This document shows, in pieces, positions 1-64,000 of a stretch of DNA of 64,000 nt; positions within the stretch are counted from its first letter, which is position 1; every line of letters begins with the position of its first letter. This DNA is from Euglena gracilis. Lineage: Eukaryota. The notes beneath the pieces were generated by a model that saw nothing but the letters and a program-made list of their open reading frames with translations, made no database searches and was not told the origin of the DNA. Made by a program: the position numbers and the translations under genes. The stretch spans positions 15,890,140 through 15,954,139 of the forward strand of contig CP154954.1 of the NCBI GenBank assembly GCA_039621445.1, given 5' to 3'.

Positions 1-1900
1 GGGGATCAGAGGCAGGCAGACCCTCACCGCGGCATCAGTTGCCTGTCTGTCAGAGGATCTGCCTGGCCGCCATGTACCTCGGGCCGCAGGAGTGTGTGGG
101 AGAGTGGCACGTCAGCCGCAGCGATGACAATGCCATGCTCTGCCGGCGAGACAGTCCCACCCATGCTGTTGCTTAGCTTGAATGAGTGGCAGGCAAGCAC
201 CCACAGTCATCCAGAATCCCAGACCCAGTCATGCCCGCTCACGCCCGGTCATTTCATAGGTGCTTGGTGGCAAGCACTCACTCGGGAGGTACGCTGGACA
301 AGTCAGGTTTTGGGGCAAAAATGCAAACTCCCCCCCAAAACAAAACCACACAAAGCAACGTCGAGAGAAACGCAGACGCCAGAAACCAGACGCCCTGCCA
401 AAAGGGGTATCGGTTTTCCCAAACCAAAAAAAAGCAGCCAGGAGGGGGAGGGCAGGCATAAGCAACCCTGCATGTCCCCACATCCGGCAGCACGGTGCGG
501 GGACGGGCGGGTGAGCGGCGCCGACGGGCCCGCCGCCCTGTCAGCCCGGGGAGCCCCGGCGAGCCGCAGCCCGCAGTGCGGGGGGCAGCAGTCCAGCACC
601 CCGGGGGCCAGGGGTGCGGGGGCGGGCAGGGCGCTGGCAGCCCTGTCCTCCAAAGGCGCGGGCCTGCAGTGTAACGCAGCTACTGACCCCCCCGGCACAG
701 CAACGTTGGAACGTTCCAAAATAGAATCTCTGTCCAATGTTCAATTATCCACGTCTGCCAATGTCAGGCAAAACTTAGAAAAAATCACACGGGAATCCGG
801 CCTCGCAGGCTGGAGGAGAGGACTGGGAGCCGTAGGGGGACTTGGGGGAACGACGAGGGGGGAGAGGGCCCCCAGGTTTGGACGGGTCGGGACTTGGGAG
901 CAGTGCTGGGCACCACGCTGGCCATGAGACAGCATCCAACTCCCTGCCGACCATGAGCTGTCTGTGGTCAAAGCAGGCAGTAATTATTTCAGGGCACCTA
1001 AAAAAAAAAACCTTAAAAAACCTTAAAACATTAAAAACCCTTAAAAAACCAGAAAAATGGCCAAAATAAAAAAAAAAAAAAAAAAAAAAACTCTTAAAAA
1101 TCATTCTGGCAAAGCTTGTTCCTGACGAGCAAAAACGATGTTGCAAAAACTCGACAAAAAAGCAAACCAACTCCGGGAAAAAATGATTTATGGCACCACT
1201 CTAACTGGGGAAAATGGGTTTCAACTTTTTTGTTAATTTTGGACCCCATTTGATGCCCAGGCGGACCCTAAAAAATATCCTGGGAATCTAAAGAATCCTA
1301 AAACACCGAAAACCCCAAAGAAAGAAAATCCGAAGAAAAAAATACTAAAACAAACCTGCAAAATGCCGACTTTAAAACCTTTGAAATGTTTCAAAATATT
1401 TGACTTAAAAAATAATGCCTGAAAGCAGGGCTTTACCTACAACAGGGTGGGCGTCCGGTAAACCCCTGGATCCGTAAGAGGATGGACAGAGTGTTATGAC
1501 CATGACCATACAACCACTCTTGCCTGCGCAGCGCTGGTCTGAAAAATTAAATATTTGGTGGCTGGAAAGCCCGCTGAATTGAAAGCAACCTGCCCTCCAT
1601 CTCAGGTAGGGTGAATCTCCTCTGCTGCCACCCCACAGCCAAAAAAAATGGGGGCTGTGGACGGCACGCACCCTCCCATTGCCCAAATACCTCATCGGTT
1701 TCGGCCGCTTTCACAAAAGCATCGACAAACTTTTTTGCATCGTATGGCACACCCGTGTGGCTGCAAAGAGTGGGAATTGACGTCGTCAATGCATGCGAGA
1801 ACGTGGCAACTACTGCCAGTTTTATCTTTCGCTGGTGTGACCGATTCAAAAGCATTCCCGCTGGCGCTCGTGGGTCCGCCCACCCTTGCAAATTTGTCAG
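1..1900. repeat. Segmental/TE duplication, copy 1 (runs off the window start)
   Basis: Near-identical to 18590-20508, including the nested 978-1421 element. Similarity ends after AAATTTGTCAG. Confidence 0.95.
978..1421. mobile_element. hAT-like non-autonomous element (CAG...CTG, 8-bp TSD)
   Basis: Ends CAGTAATTATTT...AAATAATGCCTG. Perfect TSD AAAGCAGG at 970-977 and 1422-1429. Internal CCTTAAAA repeats. Confidence 0.85.
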
Positions 1901-12915: not shown

Positions 12916-13746
12916 CTTTCTTTCTCTTCTTTCTTTATTTATATTATTTATTATCTTCTTATTTATCTTTCTTTATTCATTTTATTTATTCATTCATTTA
13001 TTTTCTTCTTTTATTCTTATTTATTATTTATTTTTATTTATTTTTTTATCATGTGCCTCATGTGCTATTTTTTTTGCTATCGCAAGCTGCAAAGCTGGAA
13101 AAGAAAAGCGTGGCAGCAGATGGGCGCCTCTGTGCCACACATTGTTGCCAGGAGGCTGGATTTGACCACCCCGGGGTGAGGAAGGGGACATCGGAGTTCC
13201 GGGTGCATTTCCAGGCAGGGACTACCCCCCGGGTCGCACCTACCACAAAAAAAATTGCCCGGAACAGAACCTTTTTGGGATTCCAGCAACATATGCACCG
13301 GCGGTGGGGGGGGGTGTCGACCCCACCACCCATAGGGTTCTGGGCACTCCCGTACCCCGGGGGGTCGTGAAACAGATCAACCGAAAAGATGCTCAAACCC
13401 CACTGTTCATCATTTCTGGAAATTCGAGGATATTGTTTCACCAGGGTTGCCTGAGAAAGAGACGTTGTGAAACCTCTGTAGGCCCATCAACGGTGCTTTG
13501 CATCAGACACTTTCAGCCCGACCCACACCCGGGCCCTAGCGTGAGACTGGCTGTTCCGCATGAAAAACAACGTCTGTGTGCTAATTTGTGAAGCCATTTC
13601 CTTTCTCCCCATCAATCATCCTTATCCTTACCATGGGCTTGAACTTTTTCCCTTGAACCTTGGGCCTTGGGTCTGGGTGAGAAGCACAGCAGAGCTCCAC
13701 ACTTGTGGCATAAAAAATGAGCGGCTCCTGCCGTCAGGGTTTGAAC

Positions 13747-14029
13747 CATGCTTGTGCTTCCCAGCGGGGGGGGGGGTGGATGCTCTAGGGTGCCTGCCCC
13801 TAGCAGGCACACCCCCAGGGGGGGGTCGGGGGGGACCCAGAAAATTTTCATTGAAAATGGCCTTTTCCGGGCCCGCGGCGCCAAAGGCGCTGGGGTCGGA
13901 GGGGGGGTGCCTGCTAGGGGCAGGCACCCCCAAAACCCCACCCCCCGGGGGGGTCGGATTGGGTGCTATGGGGTGCCTGCCCCTAGCACCCCCCCCTGTG
14001 GGGTAGGCACCCGACTAAGCACAAGCCTG
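13747..14029. mobile_element. hAT-like MITE (CAT/CAG...CTG, 8-bp TSD)
   Basis: TIR CATGCTTGTGCTT / AAGCACAAGCCTG. Perfect TSD GTTTGAAC at 13739-13746 and 14030-14037. Internal palindromic GTGCCTGCCCCTAGCA repeats. Confidence 0.9.
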
Positions 14030-15976
14030 GTTTGAACCAAACTTGTCAGGGTGAGCAACCCGACGGAAGCTACCACACGTTCCCCTCCAGCTTGCACAAC
14101 AAGGAAAATATCAGTCAGCCACCTCCTTCTCCGGGTGAGCCAGTAAACAAGCAAACAGCAAACTGCGGGGCGGGGCAGCTCGGCAGACAACCTGAGCCTA
14201 AGCCTCAGCAGGAGCCGTTGGGCTGACCCAGCAGAGGAAGGGGCAACAGACAAGACTGGAAAGCCTTGGGAGAGAAGGTTTTCTTTACCAAGCACCCCTT
14301 GGCTCCATCGTGGCAGGGACGAATTGTACGCCTCCCGGGGGGGGGCAGAGTCATGAATATCGCTGAAAAGTTGGTGGATTCGACCACCAACCCGTATTGA
14401 AAAACAAGCGCAACCTTCTTTATCCCAAGGGTTCATTTTTTCAACACAGACACATAACTCCCTCCAATTGCAAACACCTGGGGGTCTTGAAATGCTGCCT
14501 GAATATAAACATGGGGGATTAAAGTTGACAGCATCTGTTCATATGGACAAATGGTTCATCCGGCGGGGGGATACCATGTGGTTCCACCTGGGCCCCACTT
14601 TCGGGGAAAGTCGTGACCCTTCAGATAGGATCAGGGTCATGGCCGGACTGCTGTGGACTCTCTTTTTTTTTGGATTCCGGAAGAAGTTAGTTTCCGGAAG
14701 GATTCCGGAAGAAGTTTTTGGGGATTTTTTTCCTTAAAAAATGATCCCTGTTTGACACATGGCCTTGGCTGTTCATCACACAGGGAAAGGGGGGTACTTT
14801 CTCTAAAAGACAGCAAATCATTTCAGTGACACAACGAACAAAACGTGTCAAACAAAAAGACAAAAAGTGTCAAACAAAATGATTGCTGAGTCCTGATGAT
14901 CATGACTATGACGATTTCATGCCAGGTGGGAGGATTAGGGCTAAGACACAAAATTGAATGGGGAAAACAGAGCTTCTTGTTTTGAGAAAAGTATCATCGA
15001 CTTTAGGATGGCATTACACAGAAACCGTGAAGATTTCGACTCCCTGAGTTATCACGCTGAGAAGAGGCAAAGGACTCGTTGGCAGAGAAACCACTGACAG
15101 GTTCGACAGCATCCGGAGGAAATTGTGAGTGTATTCAAGCCCGCTCCCAATCAGGTCTGGCTTCAGGGCAGGAGAGCCCAATGGCGTGCTGGGTTGCCCA
15201 CCTGCCGTTCTCTGCTCTGCAGGAGAGGATATCGTATAGCAAGGCCCATTGCAAGACAGCCGGTGCAATGAGCCGCGGGTCGGAGAGAGGGTGGACATAA
15301 CACAGCAGCATCCCACTGGGCGAAGTGTAATGCGACGCTGCATCCCCATAGGAGGGGGAAATGAGCGGGGGTCAAAAGAGGGTGTGAACTTCCTGAAAAG
15401 TCGGGATAGGCCATTCACCAGGAAATAAATCATCCTGCAATGTGATCACAGAGTTAGACGACGACACATCATTCTGGCAGACAAAGAAGCCATACCAATG
15501 AAAACAAGGTCAGGTCCTTTGACGTGTCCACACTAAAATTGCAGTTGACCATACGTTGGTGTGGCTTCTGTGTCTGAAGAGCTCCCATGCACAAACATGT
15601 GGGAAGACCAACAAATAATTGTTATTTGGCGACAAAATTTTCTAACAATTCCGAAACTAGGAAAACGAAATGCAATACACCACATCCCTCACCCTGCGGA
15701 CAAGAAAACATTTGAAACTTGTGGATGAATGAAAAACTGCAAAAAACCAGCAAATGAATGAAAAACTTGGTGCCTTTTCCACCCTGTCAAACGTACAGTA
15801 CAGGGCGAGGCTGCACTTGTTATCAAGGTACTCTTTCGTGTCGAAATCCAATGTTTTTTCATTCAAATGTTCTTATTTTTGTTGATATCCCCGGTCGATT
15901 CCTCATTGCATTGCCTTGGTCAAGTCAGCACTAATCTCTTAAGTGTTTGAACAAATACCTTTCTCTGCATGTTAAC

Positions 15977-18589: not shown

Positions 18590-20508
18590 GGGGATCAGAG
18601 GCAGGCAGACCCTCACCGCGGCATCAGTTGCCTGTCTGTCAGAGGATCTGCCTGGCCGCCATGTACCTCGGGCCGCAGGAGTGTGTGGGAGAGTGGCACG
18701 TCAGCCGCAGCGATGACAATGCCATGCTCTGCCGGCGAGACAGTCCCACCCATGCTGTTGCTTAGCTTGAATGAGTGGCAGGCAAGCACCCACAGTCATC
18801 CAGAATCCCAGACCCAGTCATGCCCGCTCACGCCCGGTCATTTCATAGGTGCTTGGTGGCAAGCACTCACTCGGGAGGTACGCTGGACAAGTCAGGTTTT
18901 GGGGCAAAAATACAAACTCCCCCCCAAAACAAAACCACACAACGCAACGTCAAGAGAAACGCAGACGCCAGAAACCAGACGCCCTGCCAAAAGGGGTTAA
19001 TCGGTTTCCCCAAACCAACAGACCAAAAAAAAGCAGTCAGGAGGGGGAGGGCAGGCATAAGCAACCCTGCACGTCCCCACATCCGACAAGCACGGTGCGG
19101 GGACGGGCGGGTGAGCGGCGCCGACGGGCCCGCCGCCCAGTCAGCCCGGGGAGCCCCGGCGAGCCGCAGCCCGCAGTGCGGGGGGCAGCAGTCCAGCACC
19201 CCGAGGGCCAGGGGTTCGGGGGCGGGCAGGGAGCTGGCAGCCCTGTCCCCCAAAGGCGCGGGCCTGTAGTGTAACGCAGCTACTGACCCCCCCGGCACAG
19301 CAACGTTGGAACGTTCCAAAATAGAATCTCTGTCCAATGTTCAATTATCCACGTCTGCCAATGTCAGGCAAAACTTACAAAAAATCACATGGGAATCCGG
19401 CCTCGCAGGCTGATACCGAGGCCGCCAATGGTGCTCCACGGCAGCGGAGGAGAGGACTGGGAGCCGTAGGGGGACTTGGGGGAACGACGAGGGGGGAGAG
19501 GGCCCCCAGGTTTGGACGGGTCGGGACTTGGGAGCAGTGCTGGGCACCACGCTGGCCATGAGACAGCAACTCCCTGCCGACCATGAGCTGTCTGTGGTCA
19601 AAGCAGGCAGTAATTATTTCAGGGCACCTAAAAAAAAACCTTAAAAAACCAGAAAACTGGCCAAAATGTTGAAAAAACCCTTAAAACTCCAAAAAAAAAA
19701 ACTCTTAAAAATCATTCTGGCAAAGCTTGTTCCTGACGAGCAAAAACGATGTTGCAAAACTCGACAAAAAAGCAAACCAACTCCGGGAAAAAATGATTTA
19801 TGGCACCACTCTAACTGGGGAAAATGGGTTTCAACTTTTTTGCTAATTTTGGACCCCATTTGATGCCCAGGCGGACCCTAAAAAATATCCTGGGAATCTA
19901 AAGAATCCTAAAACACCGAAAACCCCAAAGAAAGAAAATCCGAAGAAAAAAATACTAAAGCAAACCTGCAAAATGCCTACTTTAAAACCTTGGAAATGTT
20001 TCAAAATATTTGACTTAAAAAATAATGCCTGAAAGCAGGGCTTTACCTACAACAGGGTGGGCGTCCGGTAAACCCCTGGATCCGTAAGAGGATGGACAGA
20101 GTGTTATGACCATGACCATACAACCACTCTTGCCTGTGCAGCGCTGGTCTGAAAAATTAAATTTGGTGGCTGGAAAGCCCGCTGAATTGAAAGCAACCTG
20201 CCCTCCATCTCAGGTAGGGTGAATCTCCTCTGCTGCCACCCCACAGCCAAAAAAAATGGGGGCTGTGGACGGCACGCACCCTCCCATTGCCCAAATACCT
20301 CATCGGTTTCGGCCGCTTTCACAAAAGCATCGACAAACTTTTTTGCATCGTATGGCACACCCGTGTGGCTGCAAAGAGTGGGAATTAACGTCGTCAATGC
20401 ATGCGAGAACGTGGCAACTACTGCCAGTTTTATCTTTCGCTGGTGTGACCGATTCAAAAGCATTCCCGCTGGCGCTCGTGGGTCCGCCCACCCTTGCAAA
20501 TTTGTCAG
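18590..20508. repeat. Segmental/TE duplication, copy 2
   Basis: Direct repeat of 1-1900 with scattered substitutions and an extra ~35 bp at ~19412-19446. Confidence 0.95.
19608..20031. mobile_element. Duplicated copy of the 978-1421 hAT-like element
   Basis: Same ends. TSD AAAGCAGG at 19600-19607 and 20032-20039. Confidence 0.85.
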
Positions 20509-23605: not shown

Positions 23606-24146
23606 GGAGGGGGGGGAGATCGGTGGGTGAGAGAGCCTCGCTCTCTCCGTGTCGTCTGTGGCCTGGCAACCCCCGGTCAAGTGACATTGCGGCGTCACCC
23701 TCCCGGGACCAATTGGCCTCACACGCGGGCAGCATCCTTTCGGACTCGACTCTACTGCTCTCCCTGCATGGGTAGCAGGGGCGCCCAAGTGACCACACGC
23801 CCGAGGGCGTGTGGGTGTCTGGCAGGCCCTTCCGGGGCCATGTTCCAGGACACTCGTCCACCTTGCTTGGGCGACTTTAGGTGGGTAGGATCCACCCTGC
23901 CGCCGTGGGGTGTCCGGGACTGTGCAGCCCTGGCCGGGGGTCGGTGGTCTCTGCAGGGCACTGGGGGCTCGCTGGGGCCGGGTTGTTCGTGGCCGCCTGG
24001 GCACCCGGGCAACCGAGTGCGGCTTGTCGTGGCCCCTTGGGCAGCCCTCCTCCGCTGCAGCTCCCTGTCAGCGGCCCCCAGTGCCCCTCGAGACCCCGGA
24101 CCGCCGGCCGGAGCTGCTCAGCTGCAGGCACCCGCCGGGCCGCATG

Positions 24147-24855
24147 CAGAGGGGGGGAGAAATTGCACATCGGGAGGTCGAAAATTGCAGCGCAAAAAAA
24201 AATTGCACAAAATTGCACAAAATTGCACATACCAGAAAAGCCATACCAGAAACCAGAAAAGCTGCATATTCTGCCAATTTACCCGGTCGGTTCGCCCAAA
24301 AAGTTGCAACACAATCAGCCGTGGCAATATGCGATGGCAATACTTACGCCATTCATCCTGAATTTGTTCATCATCCAGCGGAAGACACAACAATTCATAC
24401 TTAGAAGTTACCAAGGAACAAAATACGAACCTGTTGTAGAATGCCTGTTGCTCCTTTGCCAATTGGCCGATTGGGTTTGAAACCTGAGTAAACCAATAAT
24501 AAACAGCCTTTGAACGGAAATTTTCACTACATACATCAATTTCCCAGCAAAAACTACCCCTGCTACCCATGCATTGCAAAAACTGGCTCCTACACTGGTC
24601 AAATGTGGGGGGTGGGGGGTGGGTGGGGGGGTGGGGGGGGTAGGGTAAATATCCAGTGTAAGAGCCAGTTTTTGTAATACCTCCAGCAAAAAAAGGTTAA
24701 ATTCTCAATTGCATCAAAAACTGACATTTTCCAAAACAAATGTCCTGGGCCGTGTGCAATTAATTGCACAAAATTGCAAAAAATTGCACATTTCGGGAAA
24801 ATCGAAAATTGCACAAAATTGCAAAAATTGCACGGTGCAATTCCCCCCCCCCCTG
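24147..24855 (-). mobile_element. Internally deleted hAT-like element with residual coding sequence
   Basis: TIR CAGAGGGGGGGAGAAATTGCAC / GTGCAATTCCCCCCCCCCCTG. Flanking duplication CCGCATG (7 bp). AAATTGCAC subterminal arrays. Internal LPLDDEQIQDEWRKYC. Confidence 0.8.
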
Positions 24856-25104
24856 CCGCATGGGCTTCACCTGCCTGACCGGCCGCCCCTCCTGGCCCCC
24901 CGGGGGTTGCCCGGACGGCACTGAAGCCGCTTAGGATCCTTTCGAGGCGGTCAGCCCACCCCACCCTCCTCCATCCTCACACACCGCGGGAAGCAGCGTG
25001 TGGGTTTAGGAGGGGTGCTGCCTGCGTTGGCGGCATGCCTCGGCTCCATGGCATGCCCCCAGGGTACCACCGTGCCACTGAGGCTGGAGGTGCAGGTCCG
25101 ACTT

Positions 25105-33522: not shown

Positions 33523-34990
33523 AATATATGCATTGTGCGAAAAAAAGAGGATTATGCCTCCCACCCTGCCTTGATGCTTCAATTACCCCTCCCGAACACA
33601 TCGCCCAGCCATGCCCCCCCCCTCGGGGGCATAACCTCCCTTAAAAGAAGTAAGGGTCGCTGCAAGCGCAGTGTCCACTTAAAAAATGCACCCCCCCCCA
33701 CAATCGGTCCACCACGAGCACAGCCATTCTTTTATTTGTGGGTGGGTCAGGAATGGGACATCAATGCAAATTGCGGAGAATGTGCAAGCACGATGCATTC
33801 TGTGAGGACGCTTTCTCCCATTATTCTCCTCCTGGCTGGATAAAAACACACACAATAAATTGGCTGAAACTGTCACACAACCGGATTGAATGTTCCTCCA
33901 CGATTGACGGTAAAGCTGGGGTTGCCAACTTTAGGGGACCAATTGCATATTAAGAATTTCAGCAAGCCAGCACAAAATTCCGAATTGGCCAAGAACATTA
34001 AAGGGGGGCAAGATCGCAAGTTAAGGCTAAAGGGCAACAAATTTGCATGGAAGGAGGAGGGGTGCCAAATGCCCAGGGGGGGGGGGGCAAGCGAGGGGGG
34101 AGGTACCTGCACAGCAAATGCCTGGACCTTTCCACACAGATGGGCTGAATAACAGCGGGTTATGCGCTTATGGGAAACTGGGGTGAGGTCGGTTCAGTTT
34201 CTTGGCACTTCCAACATCAGTTGTGCTTGTTGTGAGGGAAGTCGGTTCAGTGAACACCACAGAACACTCCCTGGCTGGCAAATCATTTTCCAATGACTGC
34301 CACCTTGCCAGCCCCAAACCGCATTGGCCCGCCGGTCTAAGCATTGGAAAATATGAATCAGAGTGGTTTTGCCCACACAAAGAGGAGGTCCGAGTTGGAA
34401 AGATGGACCATAAAACGAAATGAGAAACCTCTCTTTTTCCCCTTCAAAAAGCAAAAAAAAATCAAAACCCCAAACACTCATTTTATTTTGAGAAAAGACG
34501 ATATGTTCAATGGAACTTTTATTCTATTGCCGAGCTGTAAAAATGGAAACTTAACTAACCTTGAAACCTTTGATGCGGTTTGAATGCTCCAGGAATGTCG
34601 CTTTGACACGGGGGCGGGGGTGTCAAACATGGATCAAACATGAAAACAGCAAATAACCAGGAAAGGGGTGAGTGTCAACAACATGGCGTGGACGGGGTAA
34701 GGTGGATAACTTCCAAAATTTCCACAACTGGGGATGAAAATCATGCAGTGGGTCCCGAGGGAAGATTCGAGCTCAGTACGACCTTTATCAGTCAGGAAAG
34801 CAGTTTTCTAGCAGGAGCCCCTTGCTTGCGAACAATTTCCCAGCTGGCAACCCGGGGACAGATGGGTTTGCGAGAGTGGGTGGGTGGGCCACTCAGCCGA
34901 CCCAGGGGGGTGGGGGTGGGGGTGGGGGTGAGGTGCACCGTGGGCCAGTCTGTCCCGGCCAAGCACCTCTGGTCAGCCATGCCCTTGGGC

Positions 34991-36397
34991 CCAGCATCGC
35001 CCAGCATCGCTCAGCATCGCCCAGCATCGCCCAGCATCGCTCAGCATCGCCCCCTTGAAGGTGTACCTATAATGCCTGCTGCTTTTGCCGCTCTAGCCCA
35101 CTTTTGGTTACTTTTCGCCGTCTTTGGTTGCTTTTTGACCACTTTGACCACTTTTTGACTGCTTTTTGCCCACATTGACCACTTTTGACTGCTTTTTGAC
35201 CACTGTTGCCCACATCTGCTGCCTTTTGACCAATTTTGACTGCTTCTTGACCACTTTTGCTGCTTTTTGCCCACCTTTGCCCATTTCCAACCACCTTTGC
35301 AGCTTTTTGATCACTTTTGCTGCTTTTTGACCACTTTTGGCCCCTTTTGCCTGCTTTTTGACCACTTTTGACAACTTTTGTTGCTTTTCGACCACTTTTG
35401 CCCACGTTTGCTACTTTTTGCCCACTTTTGGCCATTGTTGCTGCTTTTTGATCACTTTCACTTTTTTGTTGCCCACTTTTGCTGCTTTTTGACCACTTTT
35501 GCCCACTTTTGCCCACTTTTTTACCACTTTTGTTGCTTTCTGACCACTTTTACCCACTTTTGCCTGTTTTTTGACCACTTTTTGACCACTTTTGCTGCTT
35601 TTTGCCGGAGGATGTGGTGCAGGCCTGTGAGATGGCAACATCAAGTGCAAGTTGCAAGCCTCTTGCCGGTCAGACAAACAAAGTCCAAACATCTGCATCT
35701 TGTCCAGTATCTGCATCTTGTCCAGCAACTGCATCTTGTCCAGCATCTGCTCCTTGTCCAGCAACTGCATCTTGTCCACCATCTGCATGTTGTCCAGTGT
35801 CTGCATCCAGTTCATCTTGTCCAGCATCGGCATCTTGTCCAGTATCCGCATCGTGTCCAGCATCTGCATCTTGTCCATTATCTGTCCAGTATTCATCTGT
35901 TGGCTCCTGACCAAGCCAAAATAACCACAAAAGCCCAAAACCGACCACAAAAAACCTAAAATTGACCACAAAAAGCCCCAAAAAGCAACTAAAATAACCA
36001 AAAATTGCCCAAAAACACCAACAATGCCCACAAAAGATTGTGAGAAATGACCCAAAATCACCAAAAAGGCGCAAAATGGCCAAAAATGGCATAAAATCTG
36101 CTCAAAAAGGCCCCAATTAGCCCAATATTTGCCAAATCAGTGATAAATAGCCCCCAAATTAGCAAAAATTGACCCGTTATGGCCAAAATGGGTGTAAAAC
36201 TGGAGCTTTGTGGGGAAATTATCCCAAAAATAGTTCAATTCTCCAAAATATACAAAAAAATGCCAGCATCGCCCAGCATCGCCCTGCATCGCCCAGCATC
36301 GCCCAGCATCAGAACCCCAACTCTGGTCTCCAAAAATCCAGCATCGCCCAGCATCGCCCAGCATCGCCCTGCATCGCCCAGCATCGCCCAGCATCAT
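34991..36397. repeat. Composite minisatellite block
   Basis: (CAGCATCGCC)n at both ends, ACCACTTTTG-type repeats at 35100-35600, and an 18-bp repeat TCTGCATCTTGTCCAGCA at 35690-35890. Confidence 0.85.
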
Positions 36398-36590
36398 CAG
36401 AGGTGCTTGGTCCCGGCCGAAGGCCAGGCCAGTATTATTTTAAAGACTTCCCGCCGATGTTGTGCGGGTGTGTTGGTGGGAGGGTGGACCCCCTCCCCGA
36501 CTGCCAGGGTGGGTGAGCAAATTTTTTGTGGAACCGCCCTCCCTTCTGGGGGTTAGGGTTAGGGTTAGTGTAGCCATCGTGGGGTGAACG

Positions 36591-41780: not shown

Positions 41781-41958
41781 GCAAAAAATGTATGGTGTTG
41801 CATAATGAATCATGTTATGTGTACGATTTATGCCAGAATATTACAAGTTGTGCAACCTCTGTTTGTAATAAAGCTGGTTTGAAAACGTGCCTAAAAATGC
41901 GGGACTGCAAATTCTTTTAGAACCTGGGGGGGTCAGCACTTGGGGTGGGCCACAATTG

Positions 41959-42356
41959 CAGGGAGGGGAAAAACACAACATGGACCCTCAAAAAACGCGA
42001 TGCAAACAAATGAAAAATAAACGTAAAAAAATGCAAAAAAAAACGGTAATTGCATGTAAAATCCTTTGCAGAGCTGCGGAGCCACGGAGCTCCACCCCGA
42101 AATGCAATTTCAGCCTGAGGGGCTTAAATTTCAGCTCCATCAGGGCAGATTTTTCAGTTCGCATAAAGATATGCAATTTGTTGGCAAAAATTGCAAAATT
42201 GGGGACATTGGGGGCAAAATGAGGAATTTTTCATTCTCCAAAAAATTCCAGCAAAATCGAAAAATCGCTGCAAAAAAAGCAAAAAAAAACAAAATTTTTG
42301 CCAAAATCAAAAAAAACACAAAATAAAAATGCAAAAAAAACGCGTTCCCCCCCCTG
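41959..42356. mobile_element. hAT-like MITE (CAG...CTG, 8-bp TSD)
   Basis: CAGGGAGGGGAA / TTCCCCCCCCTG. TSD CACAATTG / CACATTTG (7 of 8 match). Confidence 0.8.
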
Positions 42357-43848
42357 CACATTTGAAAACGAGGATTGGGTGGCCAACGTTGGGGTGCCTA
42401 ACTTATATTCACTATTCTCGGCGGGTCATATCCAAAAATAGGGTCAAATTCAAATGGCCCTGGGCAAGGTTGCACTTTGAGGTCAGAGACGTATGGGGAC
42501 GTCAAGTTTGCAAATGCAAATAACCACTTGACAATTCTCCGGACAACCCTGTTTTTTTTTACGACAACCTTAGATGCAGAAAATGAAGACCTTTTCTGTA
42601 TTTAAATCCCAGCCCCAAATGCTTTCAACCGAATTCTTATTCACGATTAAAACGTGAACGTCTCATAACTGGTTGTGCATGCCAAAATTTGGCAAAATCG
42701 ACAGAAAAACTTCTGGAAATTTGTGAGATACACCAAAATATTTGGAACGTGAGTACGGGTGAGGAAATCATGTCGCGCGTTCTTTAAAAGCTGGAGAGGG
42801 GAGTCCCCTGAAGCATCCACTCTCCCCCCTGGGGTTCAACATTCGAAAAATACCTGGATTCCACCCAAATAAAATCAAGGGTGGACATTGGGGGGGGACA
42901 ACCCAAACCCGAACCAACACCCAAACATTAATACCTATCTCCAACAACAAACCATCATAAGCAATAATGTGAAAATTGTGAATGTTTCAATCAGTTTTTT
43001 TTTTGGAGGCAATCCGCCTGGAGCTGTAGCTGGTCTTACCACATTCCGCACAAAGGGCCACTCAATAAGCCTGCCTCACCACACTATCTGCCCAACGTCG
43101 AAGACGCCTGGCCAATGCCGTGCTGTCTTCATCGGTCAAACAGGAAGGCAGCACCTTGCAGGCCACAGGCAGCTGTAGCGGACACCAGGAGGGGGGTGGG
43201 AGAGGTTTGGTTTTGGGGTGCCGTCGAGGGGAAGGCAATGTGGGGCCAGCCATGCCAACAAACCGGCGTCCCAGTCGCCCAGGCCAGGTGACTGGCATGG
43301 ATTAGCCACCTACCCCTTGGGAGGATGGGGTTTGGACTGACCCCCTGTAAAATTTCTGGACCAATCTCTTCGGGCACCTTGTCAGTATCCAAAAAACATT
43401 CATGGACCTATTCATGAATGCGCTTTGGAAAAGCAATTTGGTGTCAAATGGCTTCAATTCAGAGGACAACAAAAAATTATAGCATTTCGGGTTATTGTTG
43501 TCCATCAGACTTTTTGGAGGAAACATTTTGTCAAAAAAAAACTAAAAAATTGCTGTGAAAAGCCAATAGGGAGAATCTGTCCAGTTTGGTGGGATCTCTG
43601 GGTATCCTGTGGGGTTTGATGCAGGTGATGGTGTCTGAGAAAGAATCCTGTTTGGGTCACTGGAACCCCCCCCCAAGACTGAGGTGCACTCAGGGTCAAT
43701 ACAGTCGGGCCGGAAAGAGATTTCAGAATTCATTTGGGGGGGGGCGTCGATGTCCCCAAGGAGTTGCAGAGGTCCCCAGAAACAACCTCACGTTGATTTT
43801 TCCACGGACACTATCTGCATCTGCCTGGTGGCATGGACGACCGACCTA

Positions 43849-46215: not shown

Positions 46216-48616
46216 CTGCCTGTGGTGTGAGTTGACCGAGTCAAAATTGGCCAAGGGGCCAAACTGTGTGACTGTGTGTGTGTGTGTGTGTGTGTGTGGT
46301 GACTGCAGGCGAGGGCTGCGAAGTGCCCGCTAGGCAGGAACCCCACGCCGGTTAATCCAAACCAGGCCACCGAGGCCCGGGTTTGGCTGCGCAGGGCAGC
46401 CTCCAGACCGTTGGGCAGGGAGGTGCTTGACCTGGGTTTGGGGGGCAGGGGGTGGTGTTGGGTGCTGGGCAATCCGGACTGGGCCAACCCGGAACCCGGA
46501 GGCAGTTGGAAATTCAGTGCCAAATACGTGCACATTTTCTGAAGCACAATGGTGCCTCACTGAGGGGTTGCACACTGAGGCACCCCCTCAGTGTGCCTCA
46601 GGTGGCGCCCAGGAGCCTGATTCTGACCAACCCAGGGGTGGGGAGCGGAGTTCCGGGTGCTTTCCAGGGAGGCACCCCCCCCCAGTTGCACCTTCTCCCC
46701 CTTGAAATTGACACGCCAAAATATGGGTGAAATGCAGCCAATAAGACGCCAGTATATGAAGGCTTGCGCCTTAATATCGAGCCTGATAATAAATTTGGCT
46801 GTGGCAACATCCAGTTGTCCAAATTTTCAGCAGTCATTTTTCTGGCCCACGTTAATGTCCTGACGTGTTTCAGTTCAAGCCAAAACAATCGATAAAAAAA
46901 TTCCCGCAGACAGAAGCCATCACTTCAGCATGGGGGAGGGTGACAAACGAGTCAGTCGCTCAGGGATTTTTTAAAAAAAAACTCGGTCAGCCACCTCCCT
47001 CACGTGGAAATACCCAGTTGAGAAAATACACCCCACGGTGAATGGGCTCGCAGAGAGCCTGAGGAAGCCTCAGCAAGCTGGAAAGCGTTGGGAGAGGATC
47101 TCACGCCATCCTTTCCTGCCCCTTGGTTCCACCTTCACCCAGTCTCCCCACCCCGGAAACTGTCCCCAGACAAATCAGCAAGCACCGATGTAGGAGGCAG
47201 GTCAGCAAATACGGAGAGGGGGGGTGGGGCTGGGTGAGAGGGGAAAAAGTCAAAAAGAATTCGACCGCCGGCAGACAGAAAATCCGACAACACAATTTTT
47301 CGCAAGTTTGGGATAAGCTTGAAAGCAACGTTCGGAGTTTTTTTCAACTCAGGAATCTGCTTCTTCAAGAAAAAAGTGAAAATTTTCAAACAATCGTTGG
47401 GAGACAAGGTGCGGGGAGAGAGGAGGACAGGTGCCCCCAATGAAGTCAGGTTGGTGAATATGGAGGGAAGAGGATAGGCTCCCTGGGGGGGATTCCAACC
47501 TCAGAGTTTTTCAAAAAGGAACTTCATTGAATTTTGACCTCGACACGTTGGCCAGTACCTGGGGACCTGGCAGTTTCGTTGGTGGGCTGCTGACAGGTTC
47601 TCGGTAATGACAACTTACTGAGAGGGGGGTGACGGCCAATTCTTCGACCCATTTCTGGAAACGTCTTTCTGCAACCAAGCTCCAAAACTTTGGAAATTCT
47701 GCATCATGCCCTTGCTCCAACTTGACGCTTTCCACCCAGAATGGGTTGGAAAAGAAACCTCACGGACATTTTTTTCCAGCCTCTGCAAACCGCCACTAAC
47801 CAGACCACCACCGCCACCCCCATTTCCAAGTCAGGTCTGGTTGCAAGGAACGAGAGCGCGCAAAAGGCATGCTGGGTTGCCCACCAACCGCTGGGAGAGA
47901 AAACATATAACAGGGCCATGACAGGCATGCATGTCAATGAGTCGCGCGTCGGAGAGGGGTTGGACATTGCACAGCAGCTCTCCACTGGACCAGGCGTAAG
48001 CTACATCCCCACAGGGAAAAATTAGGGGGAAAGATGGGAAATAATTCCAAGCTTCTTTTTACCAAACTCTGGGGGAGGGGATGTCTAGCAGGCTTCTGTT
48101 TACCAACTCTGGGGAGGGGGGGGTTCGTCCTGTAATAATAATAATAAAAAAGCGCTTACCTGTACCGGTGGGGGAGGTCAGGACCACCTAACCAATTTTA
48201 TTGCAGAACTACTTAACCCAGGCGCTGTCCGAGAAGCAGTGTAATATAGACACATCAAAATACCTGACCTTGCTTGAGTTGGGATGGCGTCAACTTCTGC
48301 CTCAACACTGGTGTGTCGGCGTCTATTTTCTGTTGTTGTGTTGTGTATTGCCTCTTCACTGACGAATGACCCTTCCAAGATTTTTGAAGGAAGCTTGCAC
48401 CTTCCCCCAGGGGGATGGGAGCCATGGCAGGGGGTGGGCGATTTTGACGGTGTCACGATTTGGTGCAGGAGGATCAAAAGAGCTCATGCATTGTGTGTGG
48501 ATGAAGAGCAAGAAAAAAAACAACTTTCTGTTTGATTGGCCTCACAATTACGGGATGCGATCAGAACAGCGACGGGTTTCTTCTTTCGCTAAAAGCCGGG
48601 TTGAACAGACTGACTA

Positions 48617-49219: not shown

Positions 49220-49960
49220 TTTGGGCACTGCAAATTCTGTGATGATGTCGCAAAGCAGCCGGTCCCACCGTCGCGGTATGCGGACTACGCCTGCCTCTGC
49301 CAAAATGGGGAAGATCCTGGGCAGATTCGTCCAGGACCACTTTGTGGAGGGCTATGAGGTGTTCGTAGCCAATGCCCAGATGACCCCTACTGAACTTAAT
49401 CATCCAGATGCCCACACCCGGGTCCTGCTGATTACCGACGGCGCCTGCTTGGAGTACCTGCTGGTGGAGTTGTGATGGCAGCTGCGACTCCACTGGACAG
49501 AGTTGCTGCTGCGGGATGCCTAGGTCCTGTATCGTACAGTGCGCCACCGCGACTGCCCTATGGCGCAACAGCCCATCGTGGCCCCTGAGGACGTCCAATG
49601 CAGATGAAGGAGTCATTCAGCAGACACCTGAGTCCTGGCGGCATCCACCTGACTGGGCCTGACTGGAATCAGTGGTCACGAGGAGAGAGCGGAGGGGTGT
49701 CGGGCAGGCAGCAGATGGCGGGGAAAGTCTGTGTGCTGTGGTATGACAACTTCTGGAAGCACCAGATGCGGTCCACCCCGTTCGAACCTGTCCACACCCA
49801 GGACTGCACCGCCATAGCCACTGTGGCCATCGTGCGGACGACCCTGGTGGCCATCCCGGAGTACCCAAAGTGCCCTTCCGTGGAGAGGGTGCTATGCTGC
49901 GTCCCACTGGTGGCCAGGCTCCCAGTGCAATCAGTCCTGGCGGACTTCGTGCAGCATCAC
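49220..49960 (+). pseudogene. Degenerate transposase-like ORF (possibly Academ/DUF6589-like)
   Basis: GC-rich coding texture with stops. VCVLWYDNFWKHQMRSTP...QDCTAIA resembles the hhhhDN...TA first catalytic strand region. Confidence 0.35.
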
Positions 49961-51194: not shown

Positions 51195-51399
51195 CCTCCC
51201 CCCCCCCGGGCGCTTGGCCCGGGCCATGATTGAAGGTAAGGCCAGGGGGCCAACCTTAGGGGGGCCAAGTTTGCATGTTAAGAATTTTGGCGGCCATGTA
51301 CAAAAGGCCTAAGGCCAACTTTAGGGGGGCCAAGTTTGCATGTAAGCAGGAGGGGGGCCAAGCGCCTAGGGGGGGCCAAGCGCCCGGGGGGGGGGGAGG
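51195..51399. mobile_element. Tc1/mariner-type MITE, best copy of a family with about 6 copies in the window
   Basis: TA-CCTCCCCCCCCCCGGGCGCTTGG / CCAAGCGCCCGGGGG..AGG-TA. Relatives at ~25890-26210, 31830-32035, 33900-34105, 37870-38055 and 39271-39450 (reverse). Confidence 0.9.
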
Positions 51400-54316: not shown

Positions 54317-54362
<46 letters not shown>

Positions 54363-55557
54363 CGGACCCCCCCCCTCCGGCCCCGGTGGCAAGCTTCGCT
54401 CTTACTCTAAAGAGATAAGAGCTCAGCGGCCAGGGTGTGACGTAGAGCTGAGCTCTTTGGGAGACCACCCTGGCCCGGCACGGCCGGCGGCTCGGCGGCC
54501 CAACCCAGGGATACGGGGTTGAAAAACACTCATTTTCGGGTCAAAAACACCCTTTCCTGGGTCTGGGAGGCAAAAACACGTGGTTTTGGGTAAAAAAAAA
54601 TTTCGATTTTTTTTGACTTTTTTGACCGGAAAATGACCCAAAGTCCAAAGGATTCGGGCCAAAAACGGGGTGCTGGCGGGTCGAGTGGCGCTCATTTTCG
54701 GCTCAAAAACACTTTTTCTGGGTCCGGGAGGCCAAAAAACATAATTTCGGGCAAAATTTTTTTTGATTTTTTTCGACCTTTTTGACCCGGTTTTGACCCA
54801 AAGTCCTTAAGATTTGGGCCCAAACCGGGGCTGGCGGGTCAAAAAAAGCTCATTTTTTGGCTCAAAAACAGTTTTTCCGGGTCCGGGAGGCCAAAAAACA
54901 TGGTTTTGGGCGAAAAAAATCTTTCGATTTTTTTCGACTTTTTTTGGCCGAAAACGGCTAAGTGGGGATTGCAGGTCATTTTGGGGTCAAAAAATCGAAA
55001 AATTCAAAATGTCTCGAAAACGCTGCGGAGTTGAAAAAAAGTAAAGAGGACCGCCTTCCACAACGCCCGATCGATCGGTATGCGCGGTTTGGGCCAACTC
55101 CTCGCCTAGCCCGAGATACGGTCGTTTTGTGGTTTTGGGCCAGTTTTGCCAGTTTTGGCCATTTCGGGCCTGTTCCAGGCCCGAAACCGTAAATTGGCCG
55201 TATCTCGGGCTAGACGAGGAGTTGGGACCCAAACCAGGGGGTCAATCATGAGGTTTGGGGGGGGGGGTTGACCGTTTTTTGAGGTTCCCGGGGTCTGGTT
55301 GTGCGATTTTGGGCCAGTTTTGGGTACCATGGGACCCCTGGAGGGGGGGGGGGGGGCTGGGGGAGGGGGGGGATGGCAGGCAGGTTGGGAACCCAAAATT
55401 TGGAAAAAAATTTTTTCCCTCCAAAAAACACTTTTTTTCACTTGTTTTAAAACATCAAAAAAAAGTGGTTCGAGCCACAAAAAAAAATTTAAAAACCGAC
55501 CCGGACAAAACCCAAGCGGCCATGAGCTAACAAACACCCCAACCCACCCACCACCCC

Positions 55558-55591
<34 letters not shown>

Positions 55592-58500: not shown

Positions 58501-59503
58501 CCAAACCAGGGGGTCAATCCTGAGGTTTAGGGGGGGGGGGAACCGGTTTTTGAGGTTCCCGGGGTCTGGTTGTGCGATTTTGGGCCATTTGGGTATTCGG
58601 GGACCCCTGCGGGGGGCCGAGGGCGGATGGGCTTGGGAGGTCGGAGGGCAGGTCGGGACCCAAAATTTTAAAAAATTTTTTTGCTCAAAAACACTTTTTT
58701 TTCACTTCACACATCAAAAGTGTGTTTGAGCAAAAAAAATTCCGACCCGGACTGCCCCCCCCCATGCCCCCCCCATGCCCCCCCCCCCCCCCCCCCGGGC
58801 TGGGGCCCACCCCGCTGGCCGGTGGTTGCATTTAGCCATTTTTGGGTCAAAAAGTTGACTTTGGGTCAAAACTGGGCCAAAAAAACGTTGGGAAAAATCG
58901 AAAAAACCTTTTTTTTTGCCCAAAACCACGTGTTTTGACCCGGAAAACTGTTTTTGACCCAAAGACCCTGCAATTTCCCCAGAAAAAAAGACGGTAGACA
59001 ACTTTTGGGGGCATATCTCCGGACTGGCGTGGAGTTGGGGTAACCCAAGGGCTCTGGAGAAACTAGGGATCGTCCCCTAACCTATTGGCTATTCACTTTG
59101 GGCCAGGAAATCCAATCACATCGATAATCCTCGGGGTCTTGCCTACCCAGGGAGGGTGGGGCGGGGGGCGGGGGGGGGCGGTGGGGGGGTCGGACCCCCC
59201 CCTCCGGCCCCGGTGGTAAGCTTCGCTCTTACTCTAAAGAGATAAGAGCTCAGCGGCCAGGGTGTGACGTAGAGCTGAGCTCTTTGTGAGACCACCCTGT
59301 CCCGGCCCGGCGCGGCCCGGCCCGGCCCGGCCGGCGGCTCGGCGGCCCAACCCAGGCCGGGGACGGGGTGGAAAAACACTCATTTTCGGGTCAAAAACAC
59401 CCTTTCCTGGGTCTGGGAGGCAAAAACACGTGGTTTTGGGTAAAAAAAATTCGATTTTTTTTGACTTTTTTGACCGGAAAATGACCCAAAGTCCAAAGGA
59501 TTC
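53004..59503. repeat. Head-to-tail array of complex TIR-less units
   Basis: Units begin CTACCCAGG at ~53441, 54310, 56827 and 59143. Conserved AAGCTTCGCTCTTACTCTAAAGAG block (4 copies) and ~190-bp end block (3 copies). Confidence 0.9.
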
Positions 59504-59504
59504 T

Positions 59505-62500
59505 GACAATTCATTGGGGGGTCAATGTCCCCGAGGAGTTGCGGAGGTCCCCAGAAACAACCTCACATTAATTTCTCCCCGGACACTATCCGCACATGCC
59601 TGGGGGGGACGACCGATCCACCTTCTCCTTTCCTCCCAAAAAAAACTGACCTGCTGATTTTGCAAAATTCTGAAGAGGCATACCCCCCCTTCAATTTGCG
59701 ACGGACACAAACCCAAGGTATGTCAAGGCCCTACTACTACCGATACTAAATGCCTGACTTTGCTGCGGTGGCCTGACTACCGTGTCGACATAGTGGTGCC
59801 CTGATTCACATTGGTGTGAAATAACAAGTGTGGCCCACACTGTCCATCGGCTGGGGAGAGGCCAATGGCAAGTAATCGCAGAAGGGAGCCAACATTGCTG
59901 CCCAGAATCCCCGGAAAGGGAAATTTCCCCTGCGGATTCGAGGAGTGGCTGGGGTTCTCAGCAAGACGGGCTGTCCTGGCACGGTGGACAGGCCACGCGT
60001 GGCACAGGGCGGGGCGCTAATGGGTCAAAAAAAAAGCCAATACTGGGGGGGGGCAAGAGAGACAGAACCACATGGGTTGGCACAGTGGCAGCACAGGGTT
60101 GGCTTGTCTCATATTCATATGCAAAATTTGCAATTTGCCACCCCGGTGCCTGTGCATTGCCTTTCAGGGTTTCTCCTGTTTCCGTGCTGGCCGAGGCCAA
60201 AATGTATCCGTGATTTTCAGTGATTTTCCGTGAATTTCCTTTTTTTTATTTTTTTTTAAAAAGTCAAAAATCATATTCCATATCAAATCATATCCCTCTG
60301 CCTCATCCGTGAATATCCGTGAATTTTTGCGATTGCTGTAAAAATGGTCTCCCGCCTTTTTCCGTGATCCTCCATGAATTTCAATTAATTTCCTTTTCAG
60401 GAAGTGGAAGGATCCCTGTGCTATTACGCCGTTGAAAAACGATTCTCTTCGTTTCACATCATCACCAAGAAGGAAAAATTACTTTTCCAATTACAAATAA
60501 ATCACATCACCAGAAAACTTAAAAAAGCATGGGGGTAGGTCGGTGCGAAAAAGAATTAGCCTCCTCCAAAAAAACTGGTGACTTAATCCTGAGGACATTC
60601 GGAGGAATCGTTTCTGATTGAAGCGAGCAATGCTTCTGCTTGAGCAGTGTTCAGTGGTGGTCCTGCCCACCCCGGCATGCCAACTGTAGGTTGCATGCTG
60701 GTCCGCCTGTATGGAGGCAAAAAAAGAACAGCGCACGAACGTAGAAATTGAACATCACAAGTATTAGCAAAACCTTTTTCAAAATTGCTGAAGAGTTGGG
60801 GAAAGACTTCAGAACGGGTGGCTGATGTTTCTTTGGGTGAACATCTGGAAAAGAATTTTGATTTTCGCCGAAATAATGGTGACACCACTTTTCAAAATAC
60901 ATTGTTCAGAGTTTCATCAGAGAATGCATCGTCCATTCATTACAATACATCGTCCAGAATCAAATATTTCATATCTGAAGAATTAAAGCAGACAACAAAA
61001 CGTCATTCCTTTCCCCGTCCAGCCTCACCCCTGTGACTCTCCAGTCCACAAGGGGACAGTTGGTGCAGCAAAAGTATTGAAACCACCGCGGGTGCCATTC
61101 ACACAAGGGGGGGAATTTCGGACCAGGAAACAGCATTTTGCAATCCAGCGAAGCAACCCTGGCATCTTCTCTCTCTGCCTGTGGTGTGAGTTGACCGAGT
61201 CAAAATTGGCCAAGGGGCCAAACGGTGCGACTGTGTGTGTGGTGACTGCAGGCGAGAGGGCTGCGAAGTGTCCGCTAGGCAGGAACCCCGCGCCAGTTAA
61301 TCCTAACCAGGCCACTGAAGCCTGGGTTTGGCTGCGCAGGGCAGGCTCCACACCGTAGGGCAGGGAGGTGCTTGACCCGGGTTTGGGGGGGAGGGGGTGG
61401 TGTTGAGTGCCAGGCAATCCGACCTGAACCTGGAGCAGAGGTTTTTTTAAGACCGGGGGGAGGGGGGGTCCCCCCCGCCCACCCACCCACCTGGCCACCC
61501 GGGGGGGGGGGGGGGTTCCGGAGCCACTCAAAAATGGGGAAATTCCAAAAATAGCACCTTTTCAAAAACTCTCGGCGCCTTCGGCACCGAAAAGTATATC
61601 CCACTCCCCCCTAGGGGCCCGGGGGGGGGGGGGCTCAGCCGGACCCACCCCCCCCAACCCCCCCCCCGGGGCCACGACTAAAAAAAACCCCTGACCTGGA
61701 GGAAGTTGGAAGTTCAGTGCCAAAATGTGCACATTTTCTGAGTGGTGCTGTAGCAAACCCGTCAGTGTGCCTAATGTGGTGCCCAGGAGCCTGATTCTCA
61801 CAAACCAAGGGGTGGGGAGCGGAGTTCTGGGTGCTGTCCAGGGAGGCCCCCCCCCCCCCCGGTTGCAGCTTCTCCCCCTTGAACTTGACACGCCAAAATA
61901 CGGGTGAAATGCGGCCAATAAGGCGCCAGTGTATGAATGTTGCGCCTTAATATCGAGCCTGATAATAAATTTGGCTGGAGGAACATCTAGTTGTCCAGAT
62001 TTTCAGCAGTCATTTTTCTGCCTCACGTCAATGTCCTGACGTGTTTCAGTTCGAACGAAAACAATGGATAAAAAAAAATCCCCAAAACAGAAACCACCAC
62101 TTCAGCACAGGGGAAAGAACAATGGGATAAAAAATATTCCTGCAGACAGAAGCCACCACTTCAGCATGAGAGAGGGTGACGAACGAGTCAGTCGCTCAGA
62201 GATTTTAAAAAAAAAGCATCACATCGTTTCAGCCACCTCCCTCACATGAAAATAACCCGTTTGGAAAATACACTCTGGGGTGGGTCACCTCGCAGACAGC
62301 CTGAGGAAGCCTCAGCAAGCTGGAAAGCGTTGGGAGAGGATATCCCACCATCCTTTCCTGCCCCTTGGTTCCATCTTTACCCAGCCTCCCCACTCCGGAA
62401 ACTGTCCCCAGACAAATCAGCAAGCACCGATGTAGGAGGCAGGCCAGCAAGTACGGAGAGGGGGGGTGGGGCTGGGTGACAGGGAAAAAAGTCAAAAAAA

Positions 62501-64000
62501 ATTCGACCGCCGGCAGACAGAAAATCCGACAACACAATTTTTCGCAAGTTTGGGATAAGCTTGAAAGCAATGTTCGGAGTTTTTTTCAACTCAGGAATCT
62601 GCTTCTTCAAGAAAAAAGTGAAAAATTTCAAACAATCGTTGGGAGACAAGATGCGGGGAGAGAGGAGGACAGGTGCCCCCAATGAAGACAGGTTGGCGAA
62701 TATGGAGGGAAGAGAACAGGCTCCCTGGGGGGATTCCAACCTCAGAGTTTTTCAAAGGAACTTCATTGAATTTTAACCTCGACATGTTGGCCAGTACCTG
62801 GGGACCTGGCAGTTTCGCTGGTGGGCTGCTGACAGGTTCTCGGTCATGACAGCTTACTGAGAGGGGGGTGACGGCCAATTCTTCGACCCATTTCTGGAAA
62901 CGTCTTTCTGCAACCAAAGCTCCAAAACTTTGGAAATTCTGCATCATGCCCTTGCTCCAACTTTACACCTTCCACCCAGAATGGGTTGGAAAAGAAACCT
63001 CACGGACATTTTTTTCCAACCTCTGCAAACCGCCGCTAATCAGACCACCACCGCCACCCCCATTTCCAAGTCAGGTCTGGTTGCAAGGAAGGAGAGCGCT
63101 CAAAAGGCATGCTAGGTTGCCCACCAATCGCACTCTGTTCTCTGGGAGAGAAAACATATAACAGGGCCATGACAGGCATGCATGTGAATGAGCCGCGCGT
63201 CGGAGAGGGGTTGGACATTGCACAGCAGCTCTCCACTGGACCAGGCGTAAGCTACATCCCCACAGGGAAAAATTAGGGGGAAAGATGGGAAATAATTCCA
63301 AGCTTCTTTTTACCAAACTCTGGGGGAGGGGATGCCTAGCAGGCTTCAGTTTACCAACTCTGGGGGAGGGGGGGGGTTCGTCCTGTAATAAAAAAAAAGC
63401 GCTTACCTGTACCGGTGGTGCAAGCTTCCTTCAGAAACCTTGGAAGGGTCATTCGTCAGTGAAGAGGCAATACACAACACAGCAACAGAAAATAGACGCC
63501 GACACACCAGCGTTGAGGCAGAAGTTGACGCCATCCCAACTCAAGCAAGGTCAGGTATTTTGATATGTCTACATTATACTGCTGCTCCGACAGCGCCTGG
63601 GTTAAGTAGTTCTGCAATAAAATTGGCTAGGTGGTATGACCTCCAGGGGGCTGGGAGCCATGGCAGGAGGTGGGCGATTTTGACGGTGTCACAATTTGGA
63701 CCTTACACTGGCATGGATTCTGTGTCTGTTGCAGGAGGATCAAAAGAGCTCATGCATAGTGTGTGGATGAAGAGCAAGAAAAAAAAACTTTCTGTTTCAT
63801 TGGCCTCACAATTACGGGATGCGATCAGAACAGTGACGGGTTTCTTCTTCCGCTAAAAGCCGGGTTGAACAGACTGACTATTCATTTGCAACTCAACCAC
63901 TGCGGAAATGCGGCACGACTCACCTGGTGCCACGTCCAATTTTGACGGCAAACCATCCGGCACCCTTTGAAACCTGGCACGTGTACTCCACCACAATTCT
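59505..64000 (-). pseudogene. Degenerate multi-exon element, copy B (runs off the window end)
   Basis: Clearly alignable to 43720-48980 throughout, differing by insertions and one inversion. Confidence 0.65.
61436..61693. mobile_element. hAT-like MITE (CAG...CTG, 8-bp TSD)
   Basis: CAGAGGTTTTTTTA / TAAAAAAAACCCCTG. Perfect TSD ACCTGGAG at 61428-61435 and 61694-61701. Absent from copy A at ~46494. Confidence 0.92.

Follow-up and report, generated by a model that had tools for sequence, protein, structure and literature searches.

The window, by which we mean the whole 64,000-nucleotide stretch of DNA that was analysed, carries several short elements bounded by CAG...CTG ends and flanked by direct repeats. 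The focal one, E4, has the following parts:

61428..61435, no strand: left flanking duplication (TSD) of E4, ACCTGGAG, read directly; same letters as 61694-61701
61436..61693, no strand: E4, a 258-bp non-coding element with terminal inverted repeats (TIRs), a probable MITE, with CAG...CTG ends and subterminal hairpins made of G/C runs
61436..61453, plus strand: 5' TIR of E4; 15 of its 18 positions agree with 61676-61693 read as reverse complement
61676..61693, minus strand: 3' TIR of E4, which pairs with 61436-61453
61694..61701, no strand: right TSD of E4, ACCTGGAG, read directly

E4 opens with CAGAGG and closes with CCCCTG, and its first letters, CAGAGGTTTTTTTAAGAC, find their near-complement at the far end. 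A degenerate pattern derived from these termini matched twice in the 64 kb, at the two ends of E4 itself, with 0.08 matches expected and two matches reached in none of 100 shuffles. Compared with metagenomes, the same pattern gave 102 loci, all of them covering 18-25 nt only and thus chance matches. Within the window blastn found one copy of E4. In the predicted RNA fold the CAG at one end is paired with the CUG at the other, in the MFE as well as in the centroid structure, and the stability of this fold stays at the level of shuffled sequences (z = -0.8) because the whole element is rich in G/C runs.

Five companion elements, one of them present twice, were located in the window:

970..1429, no strand: E1 (978-1421), 444 bp, A-rich, with TSDs AAAGCAGG at 970-977 and 1422-1429; termini agree at 10 of 14 positions
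19600..20039, no strand: second copy of E1 (19608-20031), with TSDs AAAGCAGG of identical letters; 90.8% identity to 978-1421
13739..14037, no strand: E2 (13747-14029), 283 bp, CAT...CTG, flanked left and right by the TSD GTTTGAAC; termini 12 of 14
24140..24862, no strand: E6 (24147-24855), a 709-bp CAG...CTG element with a 7-bp flanking repeat, CCGCATG; termini 12 of 14
34952..36417, no strand: E5 (34960-36409), a 1450-bp TIR element, CAAGCACC...GGTGCTTG, with the TSD GTCCCGGC; termini 13 of 14
41951..42364, no strand: E3 (41959-42356), 398 bp, CAGGGAGGGG...CCCCCCCCTG, with TSDs CACAATTG and CACATTTG (7 of 8 positions alike); termini 11 of 14

A preliminary description of this DNA had reported E1 in two copies, E2 with its CAT end, and E3; their coordinates and duplications were all confirmed by direct reading, and E5 and E6 are added here. 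That description had also held that the elements belong to unrelated families, and blastn among E1-E5 showed no cross-similarity except in A-rich, low-complexity stretches. E3 and E6 do have in common a G-rich terminus and ATTGCA-type subterminal repeats, which in E6 take the form AATTGCAC. E5 has CAA at both ends, an interior filled with tandem repeats and a TSD that is perfect over its 8 bp. For E3, the predicted MFE and centroid structures both join the terminal CAG to the CUG, with a fold z of -3.3. E1 is duplicated and each of the other elements is single in the window. The two copies of E1 lie in a segmental duplication (1-1900 against 18590-20508, 95-97% identity), and since both sit inside the duplicated block they go back to a single insertion event. 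A foldback at 28852-29095 was considered as a further element and rejected, as it has no flanking duplication.

E4 also lies within duplicated DNA. A local duplication pairs 44020-48401 with 59620-63644 at 87-95% identity, the approximately 4 kb around E4 being one of its copies, and the other copy carries the target without the insertion:

46494..46501, no strand: empty site of E4, a lone ACCCGGAG without the element, from the paralog alignment

When compared with the flanks of E4, the paralog aligned on the left up to 46476 and on the right from 46494, with an 11-nt local indel directly upstream of the site. This pair of filled and empty sites is a classic signature of a cut-and-paste transposon, and since the paralog holds the empty site the insertion of E4 is later than the local duplication. 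Evidence of mobility of this kind belongs to E4 alone among the elements. The geometry first claimed for E4 (CAG...CTG ends, an 8-bp TSD and an empty site in the paralog) is therefore borne out by direct reading and by the single ACCCGGAG at 46494-46501. In the same alignment, an extra 650 nt of paralog A (45561-46213) with respect to paralog B was evaluated as a MITE and discarded, its boundaries falling in CT/GT microsatellites.

The length of the flanking repeat is nearly constant. It matches at 8 of 8 positions in E1, E2, E4 and E5 and at 7 of 8 in E3, and E6 has a 7-bp repeat; in the five independent elements E1-E5 the TSDs directly abut the CAG/CTG (or CAT, CAA) termini, and the terminal inverted repeats agree at 10-13 of 14 positions. 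Among the 12 termini of E1-E6, nine start with CAG, while one end of E2 has CAT and both ends of E5 have CAA. We scanned the window for CAG...CTG pairs with termini agreeing at no fewer than 10 of 14 positions and an 8-bp repeat with at most one mismatch. The scan returned five matches, namely E1 twice, E3, E4 and a doubtful one at 435-2858, and 20 block shuffles gave 13 matches in total (mean 0.65, maximum 3), so that five were never reached. With other repeat lengths the same scan gave no match at 9 or 10, one at 7 and six at 6. The terminal inverted repeats of hAT elements measure 5-27 bp and are led by CAG or TAG. A YARNG-type motif is the terminus of hAT elements, and a terminus like this was found at both ends only in E3, E4 and E6.

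The surroundings of the elements gave little indication of genes. None of the 275 stop-to-stop frames of at least 85 aa in the whole window passed the Pfam cut-off, a search that leaves shorter frames aside and may miss short exons, and among these frames there was no transposase domain, of hAT or of any other type. A Zip match in the frame 20807-21367 was rejected (21.5 bits against a cut-off of 35.1; the frame crosses a (CA)n tract at 21081-21224), as was a sub-threshold FIN1 match (17.7 against 25). Neither the frame at 52870-53430 (minus strand, in a high-copy repeat) nor that at 49589-50053 (plus strand, the most protein-like) had a protein match of near length. Three-base periodicity peaked only at tandem repeats. 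Thus frames of at least 85 aa, Pfam and periodicity revealed no recognisable coding exon around any copy. Rfam returned no match at the gathering threshold in the window, and its 45 sub-threshold matches lay in or beside tracts of tandem repeats or coincided with a long hairpin; no SL RNA, snRNA, rRNA or tRNA was found in the window by Rfam, and ARAGORN gave 0 tRNAs.

In addition, positions 41830-61829 were compared with one DNA run and with three of the four RNA raw-read runs that share its species label. Most bins had an RNA depth of 0-1.6, with 0-0.4 over E3 and 1.7-8.3 over E4, and 84-94% of the RNA reads ran into unlike sequence, their loose ends being chiefly poly-G/C. No RNA-supported joint appeared among the 15 joints listed (there were 647 more), at a depth too low to judge splicing or expression. 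The share of window words was 0.41-0.47 in 14 DNA-type runs and 0.08-0.14 in six small, putative RNA runs. The window has a GC content of 50%, a CpG observed/expected ratio of 0.61 and 59 runs of G or C of at least 10 nt in its 64 kb. Between 52.5 and 59.5 kb the summed depth of the repeats rises to 10^5-10^6, compared with a few hundred in unique parts.

The flanking repeats, the termini, the empty site and the lack of coding capacity make it probable that E1-E6 are non-autonomous, cut-and-paste MITEs of hAT type, inserted at staggered 8-bp cuts, E4 after and E1 before a duplication. The assignment to hAT is putative, with the repeat length and the termini as its sole basis. A transposase acting in trans would recognise the short, CAG-led terminal inverted repeats; a staggered 8-bp cut at insertion and its subsequent repair would leave the 8-bp duplications. 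E4 would have jumped in once the local segment had been duplicated, leaving an empty site in the paralog, and the insertion of E1 would have preceded another duplication. Published descriptions define hAT elements by 8-bp duplications and short TIRs, and give CAG(G/A)GG as the terminus of Mar, a hAT MITE of Drosophila. Mar and Vege, both hAT MITEs of Drosophila willistoni, resemble the window elements in being short and non-coding, in their imperfect TIRs of 11-18 nt starting from CAG(G/A)GG and in their 8-bp TSDs; as described, MITEs of this type often have no autonomous partner nearby, which is a further likeness. Unlike them, the window elements have interiors in which extended runs of G and of C, or tracts rich in A, predominate, and no transposase relative was seen for them. 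The target consensus of hAT elements (nTnnnnAn for Ac, nnnTAnnn for Buster) was likewise not evident in the five sites of the window. CAG(R)GG ends together with an 8-bp TSD are the generic geometry of hAT MITEs and point to no particular host. The best reading of E1-E6 is that they are ordinary members of hAT-like MITEs, in repeat-rich and apparently non-coding DNA.

The same geometry also resembles that of the nonconventional introns of euglenids, a type expected in euglenid or diplonemid hosts, and the preliminary description had built its interpretation on this resemblance. According to Milanowski et al. (2016, PMC4770533), the conserved core of these introns is formed by positions +4 to +6, which pair with positions -8 to -6; of 55 introns, 33 have CAG/CTG there and 31 have G/C at +7/-9, and a pyrimidine followed by a purine is favoured at both junctions. 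Genetic work in Euglena agilis and E. gracilis (PNAS 2025, PMC12501133) reports that one substitution in CAG or in CTG is enough to abolish splicing, that the donor spacer has to measure 3 nt and the acceptor spacer 5 nt, with one extra nucleotide tolerated, that a purine is favoured at the start of the exon, and that synthetic 50-bp introns built by this rule are spliced. The rule as first described, CAG at +4 to +6 and CTG at -8 to -6, is thus stated in print, and its 3-nt and 5-nt spacers have been demonstrated genetically (PMC4770533, PMC12501133).

The arithmetic drawn from it, 3 + 5 = 8, holds against the published code. Cuts between positions 5 and 6 of each repeat in an arrangement [8-bp repeat][CAG...CTG][8-bp repeat] take out the element along with one repeat copy, no more and no less. 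Furthermore, both junctions would then fall at one and the same repeat position and therefore, we infer, share a single pyrimidine-purine preference at both ends. Direct repeats are indeed described in these introns. Short ones flank the junctions of 84.4% of E. agilis introns (PMC12501133), and intron 4 of gapC in E. agilis ACOI 323, which is strain-specific and the one recent gain so far described, has direct repeats of eight nucleotides, longer than those of any other intron in that study, which its authors attribute to break repair (BMC Evol Biol 2016, PMC4770533). A MITE origin of euglenid nonconventional introns has already been published in general terms, as the preliminary description had said, and a 2024 review calls CAG/CTG a "TIR" and the repeats "TSD-like", with no mention of hAT. 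Among the matches listed by a literature search, no paper connects the introns of Euglena with hAT or with an 8-bp duplication. The link to the hAT duplication is accordingly a neat refinement of the known hypothesis of a MITE origin, and it gains real support from the published data.

When the elements were scored against the intron code, E1, E3 and E4 had the CAG/CTG motifs and the 3-nt and 5-nt spacers by construction, with cuts between TSD positions 5 and 6. Every item of the code is satisfied by E1 on the plus strand, with C before and A after the cut, and by E3 on the minus strand, with T before and G after it. At the same cut E4 has G before G on the plus strand and A before G on the minus strand, so the purine expected after the cut is present in both orientations and a purine also precedes the cut. 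The junction purine and the pyrimidine-purine rule failed for E1 on the minus strand and for E3 on the plus strand. It had been proposed that these elements could be spliced in either orientation; this applies to the CAG/CTG geometry, but the preferences for a purine and for a pyrimidine followed by a purine do not always hold. E2 fails the code because it starts with CAT, and one changed letter in either CAG or CTG is enough to prevent splicing. Removal of E6, with its 7-bp repeat, would not restore sequence or frame. A copy that landed in an exon of a euglenid host would probably be removed along with one copy of the TSD.

The full form of this interpretation, which takes these MITE families for a functioning introner system in a euglenid host, appears unlikely. 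It draws on the exact agreement with the published code (3 nt, CAG...CTG, 5 nt and a purine) and on the splicing of synthetic introns, on the junction repeats of most E. agilis introns (both PMC12501133), on the 8-nt repeats of the sole recent gain and on the G/C at +7/-9, which matches the CAGG-type termini of the window elements (both PMC4770533), and on the labels chosen by the 2024 review. There is also a circumstantial fit of the host, made up of the GC content, the G/C homopolymer runs, the high-copy k-mers, the share of window words in the DNA runs and DNA contigs mostly 95-99% identical to the window; for E. gracilis, published accounts give abundant low-complexity sequence, 31-mers occurring more than 10,000 times, 2.2-2.6% heterozygosity and a genome of 2.25 Gb with 58.8% repeats. 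We consider a euglenid host about as likely as not. Against it, no euglenid marker was found within the window, no copy is surrounded by a recognisable exon, E2 is off the code and E6 has a repeat of 7 bp, and the geometry is shared with published hAT MITEs from flies and from further hosts. What stands of the earlier interpretation is thus the TIR insertions with 8-bp duplications, the published rule and the sum 3 + 5 = 8, and what does not is the inclusion of E2, part of the orientation claim and the specificity of a geometry that is generic to hAT MITEs. For a function as introns the window contributes the presence of such elements, one of them with a proven insertion, and nothing beyond it.

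According to the published accounts, the nonconventional introns of E. agilis and E. gracilis share with the window elements the CAG/CTG pairing near the ends and a stem that joins the ends, which is predicted here, as well as direct repeats at the junctions, with offsets of 3 and 5 nt that sum to the 8-bp TSD of the window elements. However, those introns are defined by their removal from the mRNA of known genes, whereas the window elements are known from DNA with no recognisable exon. Introners, described in Micromonas, Polarella, Amoebophrya and Fritillaria, are similarly insertions with TIRs and TSDs that create spliceable introns, the TSD supplying part of the splice geometry. They differ in that their removal is mostly spliceosomal, with splice sites that the element brings along or generates, and in that the TSDs of Amoebophrya are 3-5 nt long. 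Membership among introners needs many near-identical genic copies that act as introns in unrelated genes. In maize, Ds, a non-autonomous hAT element, acts as a de novo intron and is removed from transcripts. Removal of Ds relies on cryptic sites of the spliceosome and tends to be imprecise, without a dedicated 3/5-nt ruler.

Since the 1990s it has been asked how the euglenid nonconventional introns originate and by what mechanism they are removed. It is a tentative and rather doubtful proposal that the host is a euglenid in which CAG...CTG elements with 8-bp duplications are a living source of these introns, the 3/5-nt ruler existing because 3 + 5 equals the length of a hAT TSD. If it were true, each new exonic insertion would be erased from the RNA together with one TSD copy and so be born as a working intron; an entire class of introns could then be traced to a named transposon superfamily, which would explain their odd splice geometry. 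The link between the ruler and the hAT duplication would further imply that direct repeats at intron junctions are capped at 8 and stand in register with CAG/CTG, that the youngest introns carry full 8-bp repeats, that intron families are common to intergenic MITEs, and that hAT transposases are present. If the window comes from Euglena, it would show that such elements are true transposons with an empty site; if it comes from elsewhere, the elements are ordinary and the idea depends on published data alone.

Two further alternatives concern the elements themselves. Duplications of 8 bp or so are also made by the P, Merlin and Zisupton superfamilies, and termini of the CANRG type are typical of P elements too. 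The elements could on these grounds derive from another superfamily with TSDs of about 8 bp (P, Merlin, Zisupton or Novosib type) and not from hAT, all the more as the search of the window gave no transposase to anchor hAT and E1, E2 and E5 have ends unlike the typical hAT motif. We consider this quite improbable, however, because both ends of E3, E4 and E6 fit the hAT terminus and because hAT is by far the commonest origin of MITEs with 8-bp TSDs and CAG(R)GG termini. It is far-fetched to derive the direct repeats from the repair of double-strand breaks or from filler insertion, which was put forward for the gapC intron of E. agilis with its 8-nt repeat (PMC4770533), or simply from chance, with up to three chance matches per shuffled window, since their length is constant in five unrelated elements and they lie exactly at the inverted-repeat ends, the E4 paralog has a clean single-copy site, and neither TIRs nor a fixed length of 8 bp are products of break repair.

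Transposition of hAT-like MITEs therefore remains the preferred explanation of E1-E6. Lastly, the DNA contigs compared with the window were mostly 95-99% identical to it, and at position 42289, inside E3, 22 DNA contigs of one run (X1) diverge into loose ends. This divergence hints at further copies.

Besides the smaller hAT-like elements, two longer elements with inverted terminal repeats lie in the window, together with two local segmental duplications whose copies are 87-97% identical.

Elements and segmental duplications in the window
34952-36417, TIR element E5 (1450 bp) with its flanking duplication; termini CAAGCACC...GGTGCTTG
24140-24862, CAG...CTG element E6 (709 bp) with its flanking repeat; G/C-run termini
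1-1900 versus 18590-20508, first local segmental duplication
44020-48401 versus 59620-63644, second local segmental duplication

The termini of E5 match at 13 of 14 positions, the 8-bp duplication flanking it (GTCCCGGC) is perfect, and its interior is made up of tandem repeats of 10, 18 and 51 bp. E6 carries the subterminal repeats AATTGCAC at either end, and its terminus is similar to that of E3, the element at 41959-42356; its flanking repeat is only 7 bp long. A foldback was also observed at 28852-29095; its two arms, each of 71 nt, show 93% complementarity and are separated by 102 nt, and it lacks a flanking duplication.

The second segmental duplication terminates in a 229-bp inverted piece (48173-48401 versus 63644-63417). 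Within 52500-59500, direct and inverted repeats are interleaved in one block, with tandem units of 159-160 bp. In the DNA sequencing run X1, summed k-mer depth over this block reached 10^5-10^6, as compared with a few hundred in unique parts, and these repeats are therefore families of very high copy number. The long hairpin at 57819-58048, which several miRNA-precursor models match, all below threshold, is probably another palindromic repeat unit. One DNA contig of run X1 joined 49174 to 49499, suggestive of a polymorphic indel or of a paralogous copy; the 324 nt skipped lack MITE-like ends.

Small islands of RNA reads occurred at 47055, 47942 and 52356; with 5-6% of every run sampled, a run gave 6-26 reads per place. 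First mates were mostly on the + strand, and the islands hint that the - strand, or related copies elsewhere, may be transcribed at a low level.

Regarding base composition, the + strand was A-rich in 28 of the 32 2-kb bins, and the observed/expected ratios over the whole window were 0.61 for CpG and 0.48 for TpA. The window also holds 59 homopolymer runs of G or C that are at least 10 nt long, the longest of these being G45 at 54317 and C30 at 55560.
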